In this document: positions 1 through 8,156 of the stretch, piece by piece
Layout: the number at the start of each line of letters is the position of its first letter
How positions within the stretch are numbered: the first letter of the stretch is position 1
Notes under the pieces: model-generated
What the model was told of the DNA's origin: nothing
The model's database searches: none
Seen by the model: only the letters and a program-made list of their open reading frames with translations
IMG/VR virus record: IMGVR_UViG_2913167280_000012
Span: 1-8,156 of that record
Strand: one strand, 5' to 3'
DNA: 8,156 nt
Origin: a virus
Taxonomy: Duplodnaviria; Heunggongvirae; Uroviricota; Caudoviricetes
Program-made: the position numbers and the translations under genes

Positions 1-990
1 TTATGTGGATGAAATGTGGATGCCTCCTTTTAATGGATTAAGTGAAATTGCATCCTGGAGGAAATCAGGAGCGAGGTGCGCATAGGTCATAGTTTGCTGG
101 ATCGTGGCGTGCCCCATAATTCGCTGGAGCGTAAGTATATTTCCTCCATTAATCATAAAGTGAGCAGCAAAGGTATGGCGTAGAACATGTACAGCCTGTC
201 CTTTTGGTAGGTCTGGCTTAACACTGCGAAGCACCTTGCGATATTCCTCATAATTGACGTCAAACAAAAGGCCGGATTTCTTTGTTTTGATCTCACTAAC
301 AACTTCATCAGAGACAGGAATAATTCGAACTTTTCCGTTTTTAGTTTTGTTAAACGTCACGCGATTATTGATGATGTGTTCCGCGCGCAGATTTTTCGCT
401 TCTCCCCATCTCGCCCCAGTACTGAGACAAAGTAGCGTAATCCGCCGAGCATCACCGCTTACTGCATCCAGCAATTTGGCGATTTCTTCCGTAGTGAGGT
501 ACGTCATTTCGGGTGATTTTCGTTTCAAAGAGGGGAGGGCGCGGAGTGGATTTTCTCCGTGAAATTCCCCGGCATTTGCCAGGAGTGTAAACATTCCTCC
601 GAGATCCGACTCATCACGCCGAACAGTAGACTCTTTTACTCCCAAGGATAAGCGGGAGCTTCGATAAGCTGCCATGAAACGAGCATTAATCTGGCTAACC
701 CTTGGATCATTCATTTCTTTGATGATTTTTTTCAATCTGGTTAGAACGCCGTTAGCATATGGCTTATTGCGTCCACCCAATTCCCACCATAACGGAAGCA
801 GATCTGAGAGATGACGTTGCTCTGTTGGCTTTTCAAGCCATTCCTTATCGTGCATGTGGCTGAGAACATAGCGCTCAAAGGCCACTGCATCTGCCTTTTT
901 CTTAAAAATCCGCTGAATCCGACGTCCACTTCGGCCACGCGGTCTAACATCCACTTTATATCGTCCACCATCGAGTGCTTTAATTGCCAT
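1..990 (-). CDS. int: P2-type tyrosine integrase (site-specific recombinase)
   Basis: Minus-strand ORF ending in TAA at 1-3. The protein closely resembles my recollection of phage P2 Int (MAIKxLDxGRYxVD... N-terminus, LSTGARWGEA, HxLRHTFAxHFMINGG box, GHxxIxQTMxYAHxAP tyrosine region, SLNPLxGG C-terminus). I prefer the start at 990 (MAIKALDGG...) over the track's 1023 because a GGAGGG Shine-Dalgarno sits about 7 nt upstream of 990 and none precedes 1023. Confidence 0.92.
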   Translation of the reverse strand: MAIKALDGGRYKVDVRPRGRSGRRIQRIFKKKADAVAFERYVLSHMHDKEWLEKPTEQRHLSDLLPLWWELGGRNKPYANGVLTRLKKIIKEMNDPRVSQINARFMAAYRSSRLSLGVKESTVRRDESDLGGMFTLLANAGEFHGENPLRALPSLKRKSPEMTYLTTEEIAKLLDAVSGDARRITLLCLSTGARWGEAKNLRAEHIINNRVTFNKTKNGKVRIIPVSDEVVSEIKTKKSGLLFDVNYEEYRKVLRSVKPDLPKGQAVHVLRHTFAAHFMINGGNILTLQRIMGHATIQQTMTYAHLAPDFLQDAISLNPLKGGIHISST

Positions 991-1056
991 TGGCAAGCCC
1001 TCCGGTGAAACGAGGAAAGACATTTCCAGTTTGTAAAACGTAAGAATAATAAAGGG

Positions 1057-1359
1057 TTAACCAATTTTCCTTTCGGATGGGGGTAAATCCGTTGGCTCTT
1101 GCCCATAGTGTGCGAGAGCCGGAGCTATCTGCCCGGATTCAGGCGCAATTTTTCCAGTCATAAACCACAAGGCATATTTTTCGAACCGCGGGCAATTTAA
1201 GATTTTCATCATTACATCCCCTTTGGGTATGGATTCGCCAGTCTCATAACGCCATAGCGCGTTATGCGGAATACCTATTAACTCCGCAGCCTCATTGCGA
1301 CTTGTAATGCGCTCACTTTCACGCATTAGTTTTAGTTTTTCACCAATCTCCAAAATCAT
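1057..1359 (-). CDS. C: P2 C-like immunity repressor (small HTH protein)
   Basis: Minus-strand ORF immediately upstream of int in the same orientation. The C-terminal half (MMKILNCPRFEKYALWFMTGKIAPESGQIAPALAHYGQ) matches my recollection of P2 repressor C (QIAPESGQIAPALAHFGQ). I start it at the second in-frame ATG (1357-1359), giving ~100 aa like P2 C, with GGAG about 8 nt upstream; the track's 1386 start adds 9 residues and has no RBS. Confidence 0.82.
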   Translation of the reverse strand: MILEIGEKLKLMRESERITSRNEAAELIGIPHNALWRYETGESIPKGDVMMKILNCPRFEKYALWFMTGKIAPESGQIAPALAHYGQEPTDLPPSERKIG

Positions 1360-1453
1360 ATTGCATTCTCCAAATATGTAGTGCATTATGCAAACAATGA
1401 GTTGAACTATGGGGTAAATATCTCACCTATACCCCAAACAGGGAGATTATCAC
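1360..1453. promoter_or_regulatory. Divergent C / cox intergenic switch region (candidate Pc/Pe promoters and operator)
   Basis: 94 bp between divergently oriented C and cox. Contains a -35-like TTGAAC (1402-1407) on the plus strand, an inverted repeat TGCAT-T-ATGCA (1382-1392), a direct repeat AAATAT (1372-1377 and 1417-1422) and an AT-rich tract. Position matches the P2 Pc/Pe switch, but I could not place exact -10 hexamers. Confidence 0.5.
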
Positions 1454-1780
1454 ATGAATGAAGAACTATTGAGGGCATTGTTTAAGATCCCAGACCCCAT
1501 CACCGTCGATGAATTTGCTCGCCGCACGGGCAAGACCGAATCAGCCGTAAGAAAGTTGGTGGAACGTCGACTCATCCCTCTGGCCACTGAGCGTGAAGTT
1601 TTAGGCGAGGAAGGAAGTTCACGCCGCCTTCTCATCCTATGGAACGAGTGGCTCGAAATGGTCTATGACGCAACGAAACAGCTTCCTCCTGAGCGTAAAG
1701 ATTGGCGCAACCACTGGCTTAATAAAGCCAAGAAGCTGGCGGAAGATTTGGGATTAGGCTTTCTTAATTTTGCTGCATGA
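1454..1780 (+). CDS. cox: Cox-like excisionase / early-operon regulator (AlpA/Cox-type HTH)
   Basis: First gene of the rightward operon, divergent from C, 108 aa, with GGGAG about 8 nt upstream of the ATG. The segment VDEFARRTGKTESAVRKLVERRLIPL resembles the HTH of P2 Cox and AlpA-type excisionases, as recalled. Confidence 0.7.
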   Translation: MNEELLRALFKIPDPITVDEFARRTGKTESAVRKLVERRLIPLATEREVLGEEGSSRRLLILWNEWLEMVYDATKQLPPERKDWRNHWLNKAKKLAEDLGLGFLNFAA

Positions 1781-4336: not shown

Positions 4337-4368
4337 GAAACCAGAACATGCACACACAAAAAAACCGC

Positions 4369-4398
4369 TTGCCATGCCGCAATCAGTCAGGTTACATT
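4369..4398 (+). promoter_or_regulatory. candidate sigma70-like promoter (TTGCCA-N18-TACATT)
   Basis: -35-like TTGCCA (4369-4374) and -10-like TACATT (4393-4398) in a non-coding region, which would start transcription near 4405. Hexamer matches are only 5/6 and 4/6. Confidence 0.25.
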
Positions 4399-4404
4399 TC
4401 CGCT

Positions 4405-4479
4405 GCACCTCATAAAACGGGTGCCGGGTTTCGCAGCCTGCTGACAACCAAAGCGCACAACCGCGCCAGCGGTTTTTTT
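4405..4479 (+). ncRNA. candidate small RNA (~75 nt) bounded by promoter-like hexamers and a terminator-like hairpin
   Basis: Between the candidate promoter and the terminator. Internal complementarity: GCACC (4405-4409) with GGTGC (4420-4424), and CGCTGC (4401-4406) with GCAGC (4433-4437). No credible ORF. Entirely a prediction. Confidence 0.22.
4459..4479 (+). terminator. candidate Rho-independent terminator
   Basis: Hairpin AACCGC (4459-4464), loop GCCA, GCGGTT (4469-4474), running into a 7-T tract (4473-4479). The stem is short, and flanking GCGCACAA / TTGTGCG could extend it or form an alternative structure. Confidence 0.45.
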
Positions 4480-4491
4480 GTGCGTACTGTA

Positions 4492-4520
4492 TTGCCACGT
4501 CTTTTTCGCACACGAATTAT
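4492..4520 (+). promoter_or_regulatory. second candidate sigma70-like promoter (TTGCCA-N17-AATTAT)
   Basis: TTGCCA (4492-4497) and AATTAT (4515-4520), which would start transcription at the base of the long hairpin beginning at 4521. TTGCCAYG is a direct repeat of the hexamer context at 4369-4376. Weak consensus match. Confidence 0.22.
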
Positions 4521-4596
4521 GGCGGGGCGTACGGGGCCGACTTCGGTCGGGCCGGGTTCTTTGGTTGCCGGTACTGCGAACCCCGTACGTCTCGCC
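4521..4596. repeat. 76-bp imperfect inverted-repeat / long-stem structured element
   Basis: GGCGGGGCGTACGGGG (4521-4536) pairs with CCCCGTACGTCTCGCC (4581-4596) over 16 bp with G-U pairs or mismatches. It encloses a 5-bp hairpin with a UUCG tetraloop (CCGAC-TTCG-GTCGG, 4537-4550) and a second CCGG-based hairpin (4551-4571). Non-coding. Confidence 0.4.
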
Positions 4597-4658
4597 ACCC
4601 ACAGTTTCGCAGCTCTGGATGGTGAGTTTTCAAAACTTACAACCAAAGAGGCCACCCC

Positions 4659-4889
4659 ATGGCAAACCGCAAACAGCACCGCGCTATCGCGGAGCGTCGT
4701 CACATCCAGACTGAAATCAACCGCAGACTTTCCCGCGCATTCCGTGTCGCTAAAATCATGCACATCAATATGCTGCATGAGCGTAGCTGCGAACTTTCAA
4801 ACCTCTACTCATCCGCTGTTTTCAGCTATCTGGCGGATGATCTGCGCGAGCTTCAGCAGCTCATCCAGCAGCAAAACAAACTCCATTAA
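4659..4889 (+). CDS. hypothetical basic small protein (76 aa)
   Basis: ORF with AAAGAGG 7 nt upstream of the ATG; first gene after the non-coding island. Arg/Lys-rich N-terminus (MANRKQHRAIAERRHIQTEINRR). No family recognised. Confidence 0.6.
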   Translation: MANRKQHRAIAERRHIQTEINRRLSRAFRVAKIMHINMLHERSCELSNLYSSAVFSYLADDLRELQQLIQQQNKLH

Positions 4890-4961
4890 TTCCTGTTCCG
4901 GGCCTTTCCTGCACCTTGCGGCGGGAGGCCTTCGCACATCTGTAACAAGAGGATTGCCGCA

Positions 4962-5327
4962 ATGATTCTCGCCAACGACTTTCTTGAATATCTGCTCAAC
5001 ACAGAGCGTGATCTTGCCGTTCGCGTGCGTGAACGTTATGACATGTACCTGAAATCCCTGCCTGTACCGCAGCTCGCTGACGGAAAGATTGTTATTGATG
5101 GTCGTTACATGATTGACAGCCACGAGGGAAATTACAGGCTTTACCGTATTGAAGGTGGCACCCCGTCCGTTATTGGCATTTACCAGCGCCCATCCTCTGC
5201 GATCGTCGATGTGATTGCCGACAGCATCCGCATCACACATCACTATGCCGACACAGAAGACACCGTGCTGGAAATTCAGCGGCTGGCTACCGTCTGCCGC
5301 GACACCCTGAATGGCATGACGAAGTAA
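4962..5327 (+). CDS. hypothetical protein immediately upstream of the replication initiator (121 aa)
   Basis: ORF with AAGAGGA 8 nt upstream of the ATG; ends 6 nt before the gpA start. It occupies the slot held by small accessory replication genes in P2-like phages. No family recognised. Confidence 0.65.
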   Translation: MILANDFLEYLLNTERDLAVRVRERYDMYLKSLPVPQLADGKIVIDGRYMIDSHEGNYRLYRIEGGTPSVIGIYQRPSSAIVDVIADSIRITHHYADTEDTVLEIQRLATVCRDTLNGMTK

Positions 5328-5333
5328 ATCACT

Positions 5334-8156
5334 ATGACGGCAGAGTACATCAGGGACTGGCAACAACCGCGCCACGCAGTGGGGCGTGAAGGAACGGGGA
5401 TCCCCGCTCCTGAATCCGCGCTTTCCTCCTGGCTGGATGCCTACCGGGCAGAGAACGAGCGCCGCAAGGAAATGGCTGATGCGGCGTTCTCCGCCACGCC
5501 GCTGGGCAACCTGATTAATAAAAGCCTGGACGCACAGGAAAAACAGGACAAAACCATCACACTGGCAGGAGACGCCAGAAAACAGGCACGCGGCGCAGTG
5601 GATGAAGCCATGGCCTCGCTGCGCCTGCTGCCGTCCTATCTGCGCGATCCGCTTATTCGCCACCTCTCCTTCCTGCGCAAAAAACAGGAAGCCGATCGCC
5701 GGAAAGGCAAAAAGAGCTGGCAGGCGGAACGCTATGCACGCGGAACCCTGCGCAAAATATTCGAACGTCTGGACCGCACCGATCACCGCTGGCTGACACC
5801 GGGTTATCGCTCCCTTGCCGGACGCGAACGCCTGGACGATTTGCTTTACCTGCCGCAGCTCAACAAACACCAGATACAGACGCTGGCCACCATGACGGCG
5901 GCGATGTTCAGCAGCACCTTCGAAAAACTCTGCGATGGCTTTGGCGCGACCGATGGCGAGCTGACCATGGATGTAACGCTGAAGGCGTATCAGATGCTGG
6001 CCCGCATGGCGTTACACCTGCACGCCATGCCTCCACATTATGACGCACTGACAACAGACAAAGACCGGAGGAACGAACCAGACACGGAGCTGCTGCCGGG
6101 CGCAATCCTTCGCCTGACCTGTGCGGAATGGTGGAAACGCAAACTGTGGCTGTTACGTTGCGAGTGGCGGGAAGAACAACTCCGCGCCGCCTGTCTGGTT
6201 TCCAGAAAAACATCGCCCTATCTGAGCCAGGACGCGTTAAGCGAGTTTCGCGCACAGCGCGAGAAAACACGCGATTTCCTGAAAAGTTTCATGCTGGAAA
6301 ATGAAGACGGGTTCACGATTGATCTCGAGACGGTGTATTACGCGGGAGTAAGTAACCCGGTTCACCGTAAGGCAGAAATGATGGCCACCATGAAGGGACT
6401 GGAACTTCTGGCCGAAGCCCGTGGCGACAGAGCGGTGTTTCTGACCGTCACCTGCCCGTCAAAATACCACGCAACAACGGAGAACGGTCATCCGAACCCC
6501 AAATGGAACGGGGCCACCATGCGCGACTCCAGCGATTACCTGGTTAACACGTTTTTTGCGGCGGTCCGCAAAAAACTGAACCGCGACGGCCTGCGCTGGT
6601 ATGGCATCCGCACGGTGGAGCCTCACCATGACGGCACTGTGCACTGGCATATGATGGTCTTTGCACATCCGGACGAGATTGAAACCATCGTGTCCCACGT
6701 CTGCGATATTGCCATTCAGGAGGACCGCCACGAGCTGGGCGATGACATAACTCCGCGTTTTAAGGCGGAGTATGTCGACGGCTCAAAAGGCACACCAACC
6801 AGCTACATCGCCACCTACATCGGAAAGAACCTGGACAGCCGCGCCGTGGATGGCATCGACCCGAAAACGGGCAAGCCACGCGTTGACCACGAAACCGGAA
6901 AATCAATGGCCGAGAGCGTGGAGCGCGCCATCGGCTGGGCGCGCCTTCACCGGGTCCGTCAGTTCCAGTTCTTTGGCATCCCCTCCCGTCAGGTGTGGCG
7001 TGAACTGCGCCGCCTTGCCAGCCAGATGGCACGCAATCCGGAAGGCCCGCAACGGCTGAAAGATGATGCAATGGATGCGGTACTCGCTGCCGCCGATGCC
7101 GGGTGTTTTGCCACCTACATTGAAAAACAGGGTGGCGTGCTTGTTCCACGCAAGGACTACCTGATTCGCACCGCCTACGACCTCGCAGATGAGCTGAACG
7201 ATTACGGCGAACAGAGCGTACAGATTTACGGGATCTGGTCACCACTCATCGGGGAATCCTCCCGTGTGTGCACGCATCCGGATAACTGGAAGTTGGTAAG
7301 ACGTAAACCAGAACCAGAAGACAACGCCCACGAAAATGGTTTTGACCTTCAGGGCGGCCCTGCCGCCCCTTGGACTCGTGGCAATAACTGTCCCCGTGCA
7401 CAGGAAACGGACAACAACGGGACAGAACAGCCGGAAGAACGACCAGCACCGTGGCCGCAGCTTCCTGACGGCGTTGATGTGGATGAATGGATGCGCTCAC
7501 TGAAACGGCACGAACGCCGGGCGCTGATGCGTTCGCTGCGTGACAAACAGGCAAAAAACAGCAGTGATGAAATGCAGAGCTGGACACAGAGCCGCAAACA
7601 GCAGCGGCCTTTGCCTGATAACCACGAATTACTCGCTAAAGAATGGCGGGAGTCTGCCGAATCTCTCGGCCTGCATATCGGTGAACAGCAGATGCAGCAC
7701 CTGTTGCGGGGCGGCAGCCTGTACGTTGACGGCAGCATCATTGCACCGCAGGGATTTGAAATTGTACGCAAACCGGATATCCGCCCGGACAGCCGAATCA
7801 CGCAGCTCTGGCAGCGCCTGAGCCGCAATCACGGCGTAAGCAGCACGGAGATCCGTCATAACCCGGTCGCCAGCTATCTGGAACAGCTGGGGGCATCAGA
7901 CCCCGAAGCCGCCGCACGCCTGGCATCCACACTTCAGCAAGACCAGAACACCATGAAAACACCCGTTACCGTGCTTTCTGACATGCTGCGCGCCATCCGT
8001 GACGCAGAGCACGCACAGAGAATCAGTGAAACCACTGAACGCGCCCGCCGCAAAGCAAACCTGCTGCGGGGTGGCCTGACCAGTGGAAACAAAAAACAGA
8101 CAGAAACGGGATTCACAAATCCCGTAAATGAGCAAAAAACGCGCCGCGATATATGA
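5334..8156 (+). CDS. A: GpA-type rolling-circle replication initiator (HUH endonuclease, P2 gene A family)
   Basis: 940-aa ORF ending at the window edge (TGA 8154-8156). It carries an HUH motif VHWHMMVF (nt 6639-6659, His437/His439) and a YxxxY tyrosine pair in SYIATYIGKN (Tyr491/Tyr495, nt 6804-6818), matching the arrangement I recall for P2 GpA (Tyr450/Tyr454). Weak RBS, so translation may be coupled to the upstream gene. Confidence 0.9.
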   Translation: MTAEYIRDWQQPRHAVGREGTGIPAPESALSSWLDAYRAENERRKEMADAAFSATPLGNLINKSLDAQEKQDKTITLAGDARKQARGAVDEAMASLRLLPSYLRDPLIRHLSFLRKKQEADRRKGKKSWQAERYARGTLRKIFERLDRTDHRWLTPGYRSLAGRERLDDLLYLPQLNKHQIQTLATMTAAMFSSTFEKLCDGFGATDGELTMDVTLKAYQMLARMALHLHAMPPHYDALTTDKDRRNEPDTELLPGAILRLTCAEWWKRKLWLLRCEWREEQLRAACLVSRKTSPYLSQDALSEFRAQREKTRDFLKSFMLENEDGFTIDLETVYYAGVSNPVHRKAEMMATMKGLELLAEARGDRAVFLTVTCPSKYHATTENGHPNPKWNGATMRDSSDYLVNTFFAAVRKKLNRDGLRWYGIRTVEPHHDGTVHWHMMVFAHPDEIETIVSHVCDIAIQEDRHELGDDITPRFKAEYVDGSKGTPTSYIATYIGKNLDSRAVDGIDPKTGKPRVDHETGKSMAESVERAIGWARLHRVRQFQFFGIPSRQVWRELRRLASQMARNPEGPQRLKDDAMDAVLAAADAGCFATYIEKQGGVLVPRKDYLIRTAYDLADELNDYGEQSVQIYGIWSPLIGESSRVCTHPDNWKLVRRKPEPEDNAHENGFDLQGGPAAPWTRGNNCPRAQETDNNGTEQPEERPAPWPQLPDGVDVDEWMRSLKRHERRALMRSLRDKQAKNSSDEMQSWTQSRKQQRPLPDNHELLAKEWRESAESLGLHIGEQQMQHLLRGGSLYVDGSIIAPQGFEIVRKPDIRPDSRITQLWQRLSRNHGVSSTEIRHNPVASYLEQLGASDPEAAARLASTLQQDQNTMKTPVTVLSDMLRAIRDAEHAQRISETTERARRKANLLRGGLTSGNKKQTETGFTNPVNEQKTRRDI

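Follow-up and report, generated by a model that had tools for sequence, protein, structure and literature searches.

The combination of an IsrK-type leader RNA, called seqA in P4, with a C4/CI-type antisense RNA is an RNA switch already described in temperate phages and their satellites. IsrK of the Salmonella prophage Gifsy-1 was reportedly described by Padalon-Brauch in 2008, and the immI region of P1/P7, with its c4 antisense RNA, the a1/b1 and a2/b2 targets and then icd and ant, is said to have been described by Citron and Schuster in 1990. The box sequences of P1/P7 immI define hetero-immunity, and in P1 and P4 the antisense RNA is cut from a precursor by RNase P, joined in P4 by PNPase. 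The immunity region of P4 is laid out as PLE, seqA, CI RNA (seqB), seqC and epsilon; this cassette heads the replication operon of the satellite and gives it its own immunity. That IsrK equals P4 seqA, and C4 the CI RNA, has already been published (PMC4825925; PMC3632133). For Gifsy-1, the fold named 'structure A' has been demonstrated by the compensatory mutations G28A/C162U and G31A/C159U, and a translated upstream ORF (orf45) is coupled to the anti-repressor (Hershko-Shalev 2016, PMC4825925). The E (epsilon) protein of P4 binds the C protein of P2 (PMC2995052).

The window analysed here, a stretch of 8,156 nt, lies in the early region of a P2-like (P88-type) prophage. The initial annotation had predicted in it a small RNA of ~75 nt bounded by its own promoter and terminator. 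The Rfam isrK model (RF01394; gathering score 50 bits) matches exactly this interval, 4405–4479 (+), at full length (model positions 1–77 of 77; 65.9 bits, E 9e-13), and a covariance model of our own gave 82.3 bits on the element. On sequence grounds, the predicted RNA is a member of the already known IsrK (P4 'seqA') family, and an immunity role, proposed earlier from its place in the early/immunity region of a temperate phage, is supported by the full-length match. The transcription start foreseen near 4405 coincides with position 1 of the model and agrees with the published numbering of the Gifsy-1 transcript (PMC4825925), while the 3' end is indeed a hairpin (AACCGC-GCCA-GCGGTT, 4459–4474) with a T run through 4479. 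The known family, the C4/CI partner RNA and the read-through link to an epsilon-like gene had been overlooked. No tRNA or tmRNA was found in the window, and no Rfam family beyond those discussed here matched either strand at E ≤ 1.

Folded alone, the 75 nt are no more stable than their shuffles (−23 kcal/mol, z = −0.87), and the window holds promoter-like sites at chance density (8 versus 6.8 ± 2.9 in shuffles, no enrichment); both values are non-significant and were not counted as evidence. They are also what speaks for a chance pairing of a weak promoter-like site with a hairpin and T run in an intergenic spacer. Comparison with homologues places the promoter and structure signals beyond chance. 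The three IsrK hairpins covary in about 100 homologues, and among 71 distinct ones 91.5% of cells are paired, against 34–44% with the 3' partners slid, in an alignment that was fitted to the model and hence leans towards structure. The proposed check for compensatory changes returned double-sided changes in 12 of 17 pairs across these 71 sequences, and a model-free alignment of 13 sequences (MAFFT/RNAalifold) recovered both upstream hairpins in full and three terminator-stem pairs, four of the pairs being compensatory. Absence of the terminator from close homologues had been named as grounds for giving up the prediction; this test fails to refute it, because the terminator is kept in all homologues, its helix being 97% paired across the 71 distinct sequences. 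Covariation therefore bears out the three-hairpin architecture of IsrK, with a variable loop 2 and a U-tract terminator.

The proposed promoter element TTGCCA-N18-TACATT is present at 4369–4398, with TACATT at −12 to −7 and TTGCCA at −36 to −31 from the predicted start. In an alignment of 66 distinct upstream sequences anchored at the 5' end of the RNA, conservation was highest at T−12 (62/66), A−11 (66/66), T−7 (66/66) and T−35 (65/66), consistent with a sigma-70 promoter of its own at a fixed distance from the 5' end, as is characteristic of IsrK. PisrK also aligns with the Gifsy-1 PisrK and P4 PLE regions. The conserved promoter position, the covariation and the full-length Rfam match (E 9e-13) refute the chance origin raised above, to which we give next to no credence; the recurrence of the 601 bases around the element in 1282 of 5426 complete E. 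coli genomes also speaks against it. A second promoter, for C4 (TTGCCA-N17-AATTAT, 4492–4520), was considered and rejected as a chance match: transcripts from it would begin within the 5' stem of C4, and its −35 reads TCGCCA or TCGTCA in other P88-type cassettes.

A related Rfam model, c4-a1b1 (RF03163; gathering score 46.7), reached only 20.5 bits at 4392–4444, so that the element is not a member by score. In Gifsy-1 this model scored 48.1 bits and overlapped the isrK match, and the two Rfam families accordingly describe the same kind of locus. The features of the cassette are collected in Table 1.

Table 1. Predicted features of the RNA cassette, its downstream gene and the repressor gene in the window
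Feature	Position	Strand	Basis or remark
P2 C-type immunity repressor	1057–1386	−	PDB 2xcj/2l49 'C protein', E 3.3e-30; HTH_3/HTH_31 domains
Left arm, 21-nt inverted repeat	4352–4372	+	19/21 complementary to right arm 4465–4485
PisrK, sigma-70-type	−35 TTGCCA 4369–4374; −10 TACATT 4393–4398	+	18-nt spacer; site scan, conservation
IsrK-family RNA ('seqA' equivalent)	4405–4479	+	RF01394, own model, covariation
Hairpin 1	4405–4424	+	Within IsrK
Hairpin 2	4425–4440	+	Loop holds box a1
Box a1 GTTTCGCAGC	4428–4437	+	Loop of IsrK hairpin 2
Box b1 CAACCAAAG	4445–4453	+	Single-stranded in IsrK
Intrinsic terminator stem	4459–4474	+	U7 run 4473–4479
C4/CI-type antisense RNA	4515–4602	+	RF01695; 35 nt downstream of IsrK
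C4 closing stem	4520–4536 with 4581–4597	+	
Loop box b' CTTTGGTTG	4559–4567	+	C4/CI-type RNA
Single-stranded box a' CTGCGAACCCCG	4574–4585	+	C4/CI-type RNA
Second target copy (P4 'seqC', P1 'a2/b2')	4604–4651	+	Direct/inverted repeats, exact complementary 10-mer, duplex energies
Box a2 GTTTCGCAGC	4604–4613	+	10/10 identical to a1
Box b2 CAACCAAAGA	4640–4649	+	Overlaps Shine-Dalgarno AAGAGG (4646–4651) of epsilon-like gene
76-aa homologue of P4 epsilon (helper derepression)	4659–4889	+	PF25738, BLASTP, codon-position pattern

The partner RNA matches the Rfam C4 model (RF01695; gathering score 45) at full length with 87.1 bits (E 1e-16), and its segment folds at −49.8 kcal/mol (z = −3.9). A map of direct (D1, D3) and inverted repeats (I2, I3, I4, I6) underlies the assignment of the C4 stem and of the boxes: CAACCAAAG is common to b1 and b2, and a' and b' are the complements of the target boxes. 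In the minimum-free-energy fold of 4405–4670 (z = −4.1), the middle of IsrK pairs with the a'/b' part of C4, which corresponds to 'structure A' of Gifsy-1, and the positions of the Gifsy-1 mutations G28A/C162U and G31A/C159U map onto the a1 and a' boxes. Cognate duplexes averaged −35.0 kcal/mol between C4 and IsrK (−23.8 for permuted partners) and −36.0 kcal/mol between C4 and the leader (−27.6 permuted), with 0 of 10000 permutations as low in either comparison. The antisense RNA is flanked, as in a C4/CI cassette, by two target copies that co-vary with it, one preceding it and the other following it, across the ribosome-binding site. The order isrK then C4 was found in 12 of 12 reference phages, including P4, Gifsy-1, P88 and Stx, Klebsiella and Aeromonas phages. 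Among 87 viral contigs chosen by the C4 sequence pattern alone and searched with our own model, all but a few carry an IsrK-like element just upstream, usually at 24 nt.

This arrangement revises two further proposals of the initial annotation. The element is not an antisense regulator, being a sense-strand leader that carries the first target-box copy for a C4/CI-type antisense RNA; nor is it a stand-alone small RNA gene, since it leads a switch whose C4/CI-type RNA follows 35 nt downstream. For a host target, also listed as an option, the analyses of the cassette and its homologues gave no support. An Hfq-type 3' end, single-stranded boxes usable as seeds and the precedent of other prophage sRNAs that act on host targets (review PMC12197685) would fit an sRNA acting in trans on host mRNAs, with the phage cassette as incidental context. 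However, the variable boxes change in concert with the neighbouring C4 RNA and leader and follow no conserved host sequence, and they differ between prophages that are ~85–97% identical across the cassette, a divergence that a conserved host target would not tolerate; we judge this reading very unlikely. In 11 P88-type cassettes, the backbones are near-identical, yet there are at least six different a boxes and at least six different b boxes; P88 itself differs from the window in both its a and its b boxes. These boxes change together in all three copies, the exception being one a1 box, in the cassette L032, that mismatches its partners.

The gene that follows the cassette encodes a protein matching Pfam PF25738 (Derepression) at 29.5 bits (cut-off 27) and P4 epsilon by BLASTP (29% identity over 66 aa, E 1e-8). 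Substitutions in its frame number 17, 18 and 34 at the first, second and third codon positions, an enrichment at the third, and seven of eight relatives keep the ORF at its full length of 76 aa, the alignment of the eighth ending short. This gene would be the one that the RNA cassette controls, and the locus displays the succession typical of IsrK: a C4-like RNA complementary to the middle of IsrK lies downstream, and an anti-repressor-type gene follows. By analogy, the target of the epsilon-like protein would be the 109-aa C-type repressor encoded at 1057–1386. A protein search of the genome contigs with the epsilon-like protein returned three loci only, and a literature search for epsilon-like anti-repressors in P2-like phages yielded nothing specific. 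The ORF at 4962–5327 showed no homology to P4 orf151, and PHROGs gives only families of unknown function for it.

The absence of ORFs asserted by the initial annotation holds for ATG-started ORFs inside the RNA, but mechanical ORFs do span it, for example 4348–4965 (+). This frame is annotated in RefSeq as an 'ash family protein' pseudogene, and the translation of 4393–4668 matches Pfam PF10554 (Phage_ASH) at 31.8 bits (cut-off 26). A forward frame is open from IsrK to C4 in 68 of 76 distinct cassettes, versus about 27% of shuffles, and Gifsy-1 orf45, which starts at a conserved AUG in the C4 5' end, is translated (PMC4825925). We nevertheless regard it as exceedingly improbable that the locus encodes an 'Ash family' protein to which the RNA signals are secondary. 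Both Rfam covariance models score far above threshold and the compensatory changes are of the RNA type; whole a and b boxes are exchanged, so that the peptide sequence changes and the pairing is kept; and in 15 of 74 cassettes the IsrK start and the C4 AUG are separated by a number of nucleotides not divisible by three. For P4, PMC4825925 describes a CI precursor that is not translated. Downstream of C4, the frame-1 ORF lacks a coding signature whereas the overlapping epsilon-like frame has one, and on this codon-position evidence the Ash ORF was rejected as a real gene for that part. Over the RNA part of the cassette, a forward frame is open unusually often.

Very probably, the IsrK leader, the C4/CI antisense RNA and the epsilon-like anti-repressor constitute the known phage RNA switch. 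Transcription would start at PisrK, and most transcripts would stop at the terminator (4459–4479); read-through past it is the likely source of both the C4-like RNA and the epsilon-like mRNA, on a transcript that would comprise IsrK, C4, the second boxes and the epsilon-like coding sequence. By analogy with Gifsy-1, P4 and P1, the C4 segment would be processed out of this transcript, and the short RNA would accumulate and act in trans as an activator, as is known only from experiments on Gifsy-1 (PMC4825925), where IsrK is a stable, Hfq-associated RNA of ~75 nt. The b'/a' boxes of C4 would pair with a2/b2 and block anti-repressor translation, and would be equally able to pair with a1/b1 inside IsrK. 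Because a1/b1 are identical to the a2/b2 boxes paired by C4, IsrK would offer a competing target: in cis, the IsrK part of the read-through transcript would sequester the C4 segment and, in trans, short IsrK would titrate or displace it. The ratio of short IsrK to C4 would then decide anti-repressor synthesis, and the anti-repressor would inactivate the C-type repressor and move the P2-like prophage towards lytic growth. The orf45 coupling may not transfer to this locus, because the AUG equivalent to the orf45 start (4519) opens a frame without a downstream coding signature.

The trans-acting part of this model has to be weighed against a leader that works in cis only, in which C4/CI pairing with seqA/seqC would cause premature termination and a translation block and the 75-nt RNA would be a by-product of attenuation. 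In the form in which PMC4825925 and PMC3632133 summarise it, the P4 model favours such a leader, laying the stress on CI-dependent transcription termination and not on trans-activation by the leader. The terminator placed directly after the target boxes fits it as well, as does the ambiguous result of the Gifsy-1 co-expression test of titration of STnc1160 by IsrK (PMC4825925). In Gifsy-1, however, anrP translation rose more than 100-fold when the short RNA was provided in trans, G28A and G31A abolished trans-activation, and C18U/G173A partly restored the lost activation in an allele-specific manner (PMC4825925). Rfam lists IsrK among the Hfq-binding RNAs, and the hairpin and U-tract 3' end, of the type found in stable sRNAs, is strictly conserved; both also argue against a purely cis-acting leader, which we consider possible though unlikely.

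As an IsrK–C4–epsilon switch, the locus can be compared with its three described counterparts. It belongs to the same Rfam family as Gifsy-1 IsrK (PMC4825925), with 65.9 bits in the window and 79.3 in Gifsy-1, and resembles it in the three hairpins, the promoter-to-start geometry, the intrinsic terminator with predicted read-through into a C4-like RNA (STnc1160/'orf45' in Gifsy-1) and an anti-repressor gene, and the predicted pairing in cis of the IsrK middle with the 3' part of the C4 segment. The two differ in cargo, a 76-aa protein of the P4-epsilon type here and the ORF6N-type AnrP in Gifsy-1, and in host element, a P2-like myovirus prophage as against a lambdoid one. The IsrK–C4 spacer is 35 nt in the window and 25 nt in Gifsy-1, and the box sequences differ too. 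Unlike in Gifsy-1, the orf45-type frame of the window is not arranged for coupling to the cargo gene, and AntQ is not encoded in the vicinity. The window has, upstream, a 21-nt arm that can pair with the terminator, and Gifsy-1 lacks it.

The likeness to P4 extends to the cargo. The window carries the same cassette in the same order, isrK (60.8 bits in P4) and C4 (74.9 bits) preceding an epsilon homologue, with a −35 that is likewise of the TTGCC type and a single antisense RNA that lies between its target copies. While the P4 cassette stands at the head of the satellite's replication operon, that of the window is embedded in the early operon of a P2-type, helper-like phage with a protein repressor (C) of its own; P4 further differs in its 107-nt seqA–CI spacer (35 nt in the window) and in another ORF between seqC and epsilon. 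For P1/P7 immI, compared through the Rfam models, the shared traits are an antisense RNA with two exposed boxes, a' and b', a transcript that also bears two target copies in tandem, and the placing of the downstream copy, which covers the ribosome-binding site of the gene that opens an anti-repressor operon. The combinatorial box swapping of the P88-type cassettes likewise matches the hetero-immunity boxes of P1/P7. The differences are an a1b1 model that stays below threshold in the window, the cargo and the phage type.

The upstream arm is specific to the P88-type group. Its complement, the right arm, spans the 3' half of the terminator of IsrK together with the U-tract and the next 6 nt, and the 21-nt repeat dominates the minimum-free-energy fold of 4337–4490 (−56.4 kcal/mol, z = −4.4), in which it replaces the terminator hairpin. 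The repeat occurs in the P88-type group only (7 of the 8 modules with z < −3 among 84), and its arms hardly vary across the 11 P88-type cassettes identified. The early operon of P88-type P2-like phages has the IsrK terminator at its middle, ahead of replication gene A, and the modelled fold suggests that the left arm could be a candidate antiterminator for transcripts from the upstream early operon. The arm might then make the terminator promoter-selective: early-promoter transcripts, carrying the arm, would read through to epsilon and gene A, and PisrK transcripts, devoid of it, would stop at the terminator and yield the sRNA. As a second possibility, there may be RNA cross-talk with P4-like satellites or other P2-like prophages, where a P4-type cassette with freely swapped boxes would bring cross-immunity or cross-induction. 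Both proposals are tentative and we rate them as rather doubtful.

As a discovery, the switch offers little that is new, and its practical value lies in annotation. Neither RNA is marked in the RefSeq and GenBank records, which instead place over them protein genes that are spurious or too long, under the names 'ash family protein', 'hypothetical protein' or, with an N-terminal extension, 'antirepressor'. The stretch matched by PF10554 is exactly IsrK, spacer, C4 and leader, and the same Pfam model falls on the RNA cassette in the obsolete P4 'cI ORF' and in the 'antirepressor' extension of an Stx phage. A survey of satellites used PF10554 as the marker of the P4 epsilon gene (PMC8628076); the real P4 epsilon family is PF25738. 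The presence in a P2-type phage of the RNA-controlled epsilon cassette of satellite P4 bears on the induction of P2-like prophages, and the shared cassette bears on how helper and satellite may have exchanged the switch.

Rfam models matched the full window in three places, all on the plus strand (see table). The isrK match coincides with the predicted 75-nt RNA, which is therefore assigned to a curated small RNA family to the base. A C4/CI-type RNA, absent from the initial annotation, begins 35 nt downstream and is its functional partner; the 75-nt RNA is thus one half of a two-RNA cassette, IsrK plus C4. In all features open to testing, the element behaves as a member of IsrK and of the C4/CI cassette; only with the c4-a1b1 motif, which has its own model, does it score below threshold. 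The observation is confirmed, and its interpretation as a structured RNA with its own promoter and terminator in the early region of a temperate phage was essentially right. The finding is already known, since the IsrK–C4 system has been reported in Gifsy-1, P4-like satellites and lambdoid prophages (PMC4825925; PMC3632133), in literature that explicitly equates IsrK with P4 seqA and C4 with CI (PMC4825925; PMC3632133). No discussion of the cassette within a P2-type early operon, together with a P4-epsilon homologue, was found in searchable papers; this placement changes the setting of the element but not its kind.

Features of the early region and of the IsrK–C4 cassette (window coordinates)
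Feature	Position	Strand	Details
Integrase	1-1023	-	
P2 C-type repressor	1057-1386	-	PDB 2xcj/2l49, E 3.3e-30
Cox	1454-1780		
Small early genes	between Cox and RNA cassette	+	in a run
Inverted repeat, left arm	4352-4372		upstream of -35, overlapping it
-35 TTGCCA	4369-4374	+	18-nt spacer to -10
c4-a1b1 RF03163	4392-4444	+	20.5 bits, under threshold 46.7; overlaps isrK match
-10 TACATT	4393-4398	+	
isrK RF01394	4405-4479	+	65.9 bits (gathering score 50), E 9e-13, model 1-77 of 77
a1 GTTTCGCAGC	4428-4437		IsrK hairpin 2 loop
b1 CAACCAAAG	4445-4453		IsrK, single-stranded
Terminator-like hairpin AACCGC-GCCA-GCGGTT	4459-4474	+	then T-run to 4479
Inverted repeat, right arm	4465-4485		terminator 3' half, U-tract and 6 nt beyond
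C4 antisense RNA RF01695	4515-4602	+	87.1 bits (gathering score 45)
b' CTTTGGTTG	4559-4567		C4 hairpin loop
a' CTGCGAACCCCG	4574-4585		C4, single-stranded
a2 GTTTCGCAGC	4604-4613		leader; same sequence as a1
b2 CAACCAAAGA	4640-4649		leader; overlaps Shine-Dalgarno AAGAGG 4646-4651
76-aa epsilon-like ORF	4659-4889	+	downstream of RNA cassette
ORF of unknown function	4962-5327		
Gene A replication endonuclease	5334-8156		

Judged alone, the promoter and hairpin signals are weak. Both promoter hexamers and the hairpin with U-tract proposed as the RNA end were located as claimed, but a consensus scan found eight promoter-like sites in the window versus 6.8 ± 2.9 in shuffles, and the fold of the 75-nt RNA (−23 kcal/mol) scored z = −0.87 against dinucleotide shuffles. 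The assertion that the interval holds no ORF stood in part: nothing credible begins within the RNA, but mechanical ORFs cross it on both strands, e.g. 4348–4965 (+).

Chance co-occurrence of these signals is nevertheless excluded by the isrK match, by covariation and by positional conservation of the promoter. Rfam placed isrK and then C4 in all 12 reference phages examined, including P88, four Stx or lambdoid E. coli phages, cdtI, Salmonella phage 118970_sal3, Klebsiella phage Kpn74, Aeromonas phage phiARM81ld, satellite P4 (isrK 8615–8692, C4 8420–8507, both upstream of epsilon) and Gifsy-1 (isrK 34240–34316, C4 34131–34214). A further 120 viral contigs were chosen by C4 sequence pattern alone, and our own IsrK covariance model, built on 13 sequences, recovered 101 IsrK-like elements spread over 100 sources, made up of the window, the 12 reference loci and 87 of these contigs, nearly always directly upstream of the C4 pattern, with a commonest gap of 24 nt. 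Across 71 distinct sequences, standard pairs filled 91.5% of cells versus 34–44% with the 3' partners slid by 1–3 columns, the covariation score was 0.39 versus 0.14 in shuffles, the terminator helix was 97% paired, and the compensatory changes named initially as a check appeared as double-sided changes in 12 of 17 pairs, in an alignment that leans towards structure because it was fitted to the covariance model. Model-free MAFFT/RNAalifold analysis of 13 sequences yielded both upstream hairpins whole, three terminator-stem pairs and four compensatory pairs. Upstream of the RNA, the most informative positions in a gap-free alignment of 66 distinct sequences were A−11 (66/66), T−7 (66/66), T−12 (62/66) and T−35 (65/66), which are the bases that mark a sigma-70 promoter. 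The start predicted near 4405 equals isrK model position 1, and the residue numbers published for Gifsy-1 (A107 and U120 in the orf45 start codons; G28, G31, C159 and C162) fit a start at that position, which by homology places the window RNA start at about 4405.

The window corresponds to the early region of a P2-like prophage, whose nearest phages, P88 and other Xuanwuvirus members, share 91–95% identity over the cassette; a query of 601 bp with the cassette at its centre found matches in 1282 of 5426 complete E. coli genomes. The 76-aa protein encoded downstream matches Pfam PF25738 (‘Derepression protein family’) and P4 epsilon (29% identity over 66 residues, E 1e-8), variable sites in its frame number 17/18/34 at codon positions 1/2/3 among eight relatives, and the ORF is full-length in seven of eight, the remaining alignment ending short; 4659–4889 is therefore a real gene. 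Among P88-type phages, the protein varies most in its central third (~residues 20–50).

Two short boxes occur in three copies each, in IsrK (a1, b1), as complements in C4 (a', b') and in the downstream leader (a2, b2), where b2 covers the ribosome-binding site of the gene beginning at 4659. Over 73 distinct cassettes, mean pairing energies of the C4 3' half were −35.0 kcal/mol with the cognate IsrK versus −23.8 with permuted partners, and −36.0 with the cognate leader versus −27.6; none of 10000 permutations reached either cognate mean. When the read-through transcript 4405–4670 is folded for minimum free energy, the middle of IsrK pairs with the a'/b' part of C4 (z = −4.1). This fold is the counterpart of ‘structure A’ in the Gifsy-1 isrK-orf45-anrP transcript, a translationally silent form backed by the compensatory pairs G28A/C162U and G31A/C159U (PMC4825925); by position mapping, these residues fall in the a1 and a' boxes. 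A fraction of Gifsy-1 transcripts continues beyond the IsrK terminator, the short RNA in trans raises anti-repressor translation more than 100-fold in a sequence-specific manner, and the stable C4-like species STnc1160 needs the isrK promoter (PMC4825925). In P4, CI RNA is processed out of the leader and its pairing with seqA and seqC causes premature termination (PMC4825925; PMC3632133), and epsilon (E protein) inactivates P2 C (PMC2995052).

By analogy, the IsrK promoter would yield mainly the terminated 75-nt RNA, and read-through would supply the C4-like RNA and the epsilon-like mRNA. Through a2/b2, the C4-like RNA would block the ribosome-binding site, and IsrK, in cis or in trans, would compete for the same boxes and relieve the block; the epsilon-like protein would then inactivate the P2 C-type repressor, mirroring the action of P4 epsilon on P2 C. 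The cassette anatomy and box co-variation in this scheme are directly observed, and RNA accumulation, processing, trans-activation and the protein target are predicted for the window by homology. The emphasis on termination in the P4 literature favours an attenuator that works only in cis and releases the short RNA as a by-product, a reading we consider rather unlikely.

Under a rival reading, the region would encode an ‘Ash’ protein. Pfam PF10554 (‘Ash protein family’) scores above cut-off on translated 4393–4668, exactly IsrK, spacer, C4 and leader. A forward frame is open from IsrK through C4 in 68 of 76 distinct cassettes, compared with 25 of 76 for the opposite strand and ~27% of shuffles; this frequency is unusually high, and translation through the RNA could be conserved. 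Against coding, the boxes are rewritten wholesale, the frame from IsrK to the C4 AUG is broken in 15 of 74 cassettes, and frame 1 has no coding signature downstream of C4. PF10554 also scores on the obsolete P4 ‘cI ORF’ (8330–8521 of record L008), and on the portion of a Stx-phage ‘antirepressor’ CDS overlying isrK and C4 (1494–1785 of record L003), and true P4 epsilon belongs to PF25738, not PF10554; PF10554 thus appears to represent the IsrK–spacer–C4–leader cassette in conceptual translation. The start codon of Gifsy-1 orf45 is the conserved AUG within AAUUAUGG at the C4 5' end (PMC4825925), which corresponds to 4519 in the window. Public records mis-annotate the cassette: a minus-strand ‘hypothetical protein’ is annotated over IsrK and C4 in P88 (KP063541, 5033–5221), and antirepressor/Rha CDSs in lambdoid records L003 (1146–2297) and L010 (1141–2289) are stretched ~360–650 nt upstream, across the promoter and both RNAs. 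RefSeq annotates an ‘ash family protein’ pseudogene over the cassette, and a survey of P4-like satellites took PF10554 as an epsilon marker (PMC8628076).

A 21-nt inverted repeat, complementary at 19 of 21 positions, flanks the IsrK promoter and RNA. In the predicted fold of a transcript entering from upstream (4337–4490; −56.4 kcal/mol, z = −4.4), the long helix formed by this repeat replaces the terminator hairpin. Values of z < −3 occurred in eight of 84 cassettes, seven of them P88-type; the complementarity is specific to this group, the arms are near-invariant within it, and P88 has a second partial copy farther upstream, within another hairpin. We know of no N-type antitermination in P2-like phages. 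Hypothetically, the left arm could carry early-operon transcripts past the IsrK terminator to gene A, and transcripts from the IsrK promoter, which lack the arm, would stop. Such a promoter-selective terminator, or RNA cross-talk between helper and satellite, is improbable, and the repeat itself may be a new feature. A second promoter-like site, TTGCCA-N17-AATTAT (4492–4520, +), lies just before C4 and was rejected; its start would fall inside the C4 stem, and it is probably due to chance because the −35 reads TCGCCA or TCGTCA in other P88-type cassettes.

Tandem IsrK–C4–small Rha-like antirepressor cassettes (two or three, 656 nt apart) were seen in some viral contigs (L045 9821–11209; also L030, L095, L021, L029 and L079), with nearly identical or related cargo proteins and different a and b boxes. 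Matching of the boxes is clearest in the P88-type group, whose eleven members come from E. coli, E. albertii, Salmonella and viral contigs (the window, P88 as L002, and records L032, L041, L050, L051, L070, L077 and L134–L136). Record L136 (NZ_JBQPOM010000071.1, ‘Vagococcus sp. WN89Y’) carries an enterobacterial cassette ~85–87% identical to the window, and its Firmicute label probably reflects contamination or a mislabelled assembly. Within the group, backbones are almost identical (~85–97% identity) and carry at least six a-box and at least six b-box variants in differing combinations; the window and P88 differ in both boxes. Changes are matched in IsrK, C4 and leader, apart from one unmatched a1 box in L032. 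This co-variation shows that the single-stranded parts of IsrK track the adjacent C4 RNA and not a conserved target in the host, and the host-directed action initially considered is unlikely. The pattern resembles modular swapping of RNA specificity and is consistent with distinct pairing specificities being selected, as happens in hetero-immunity.
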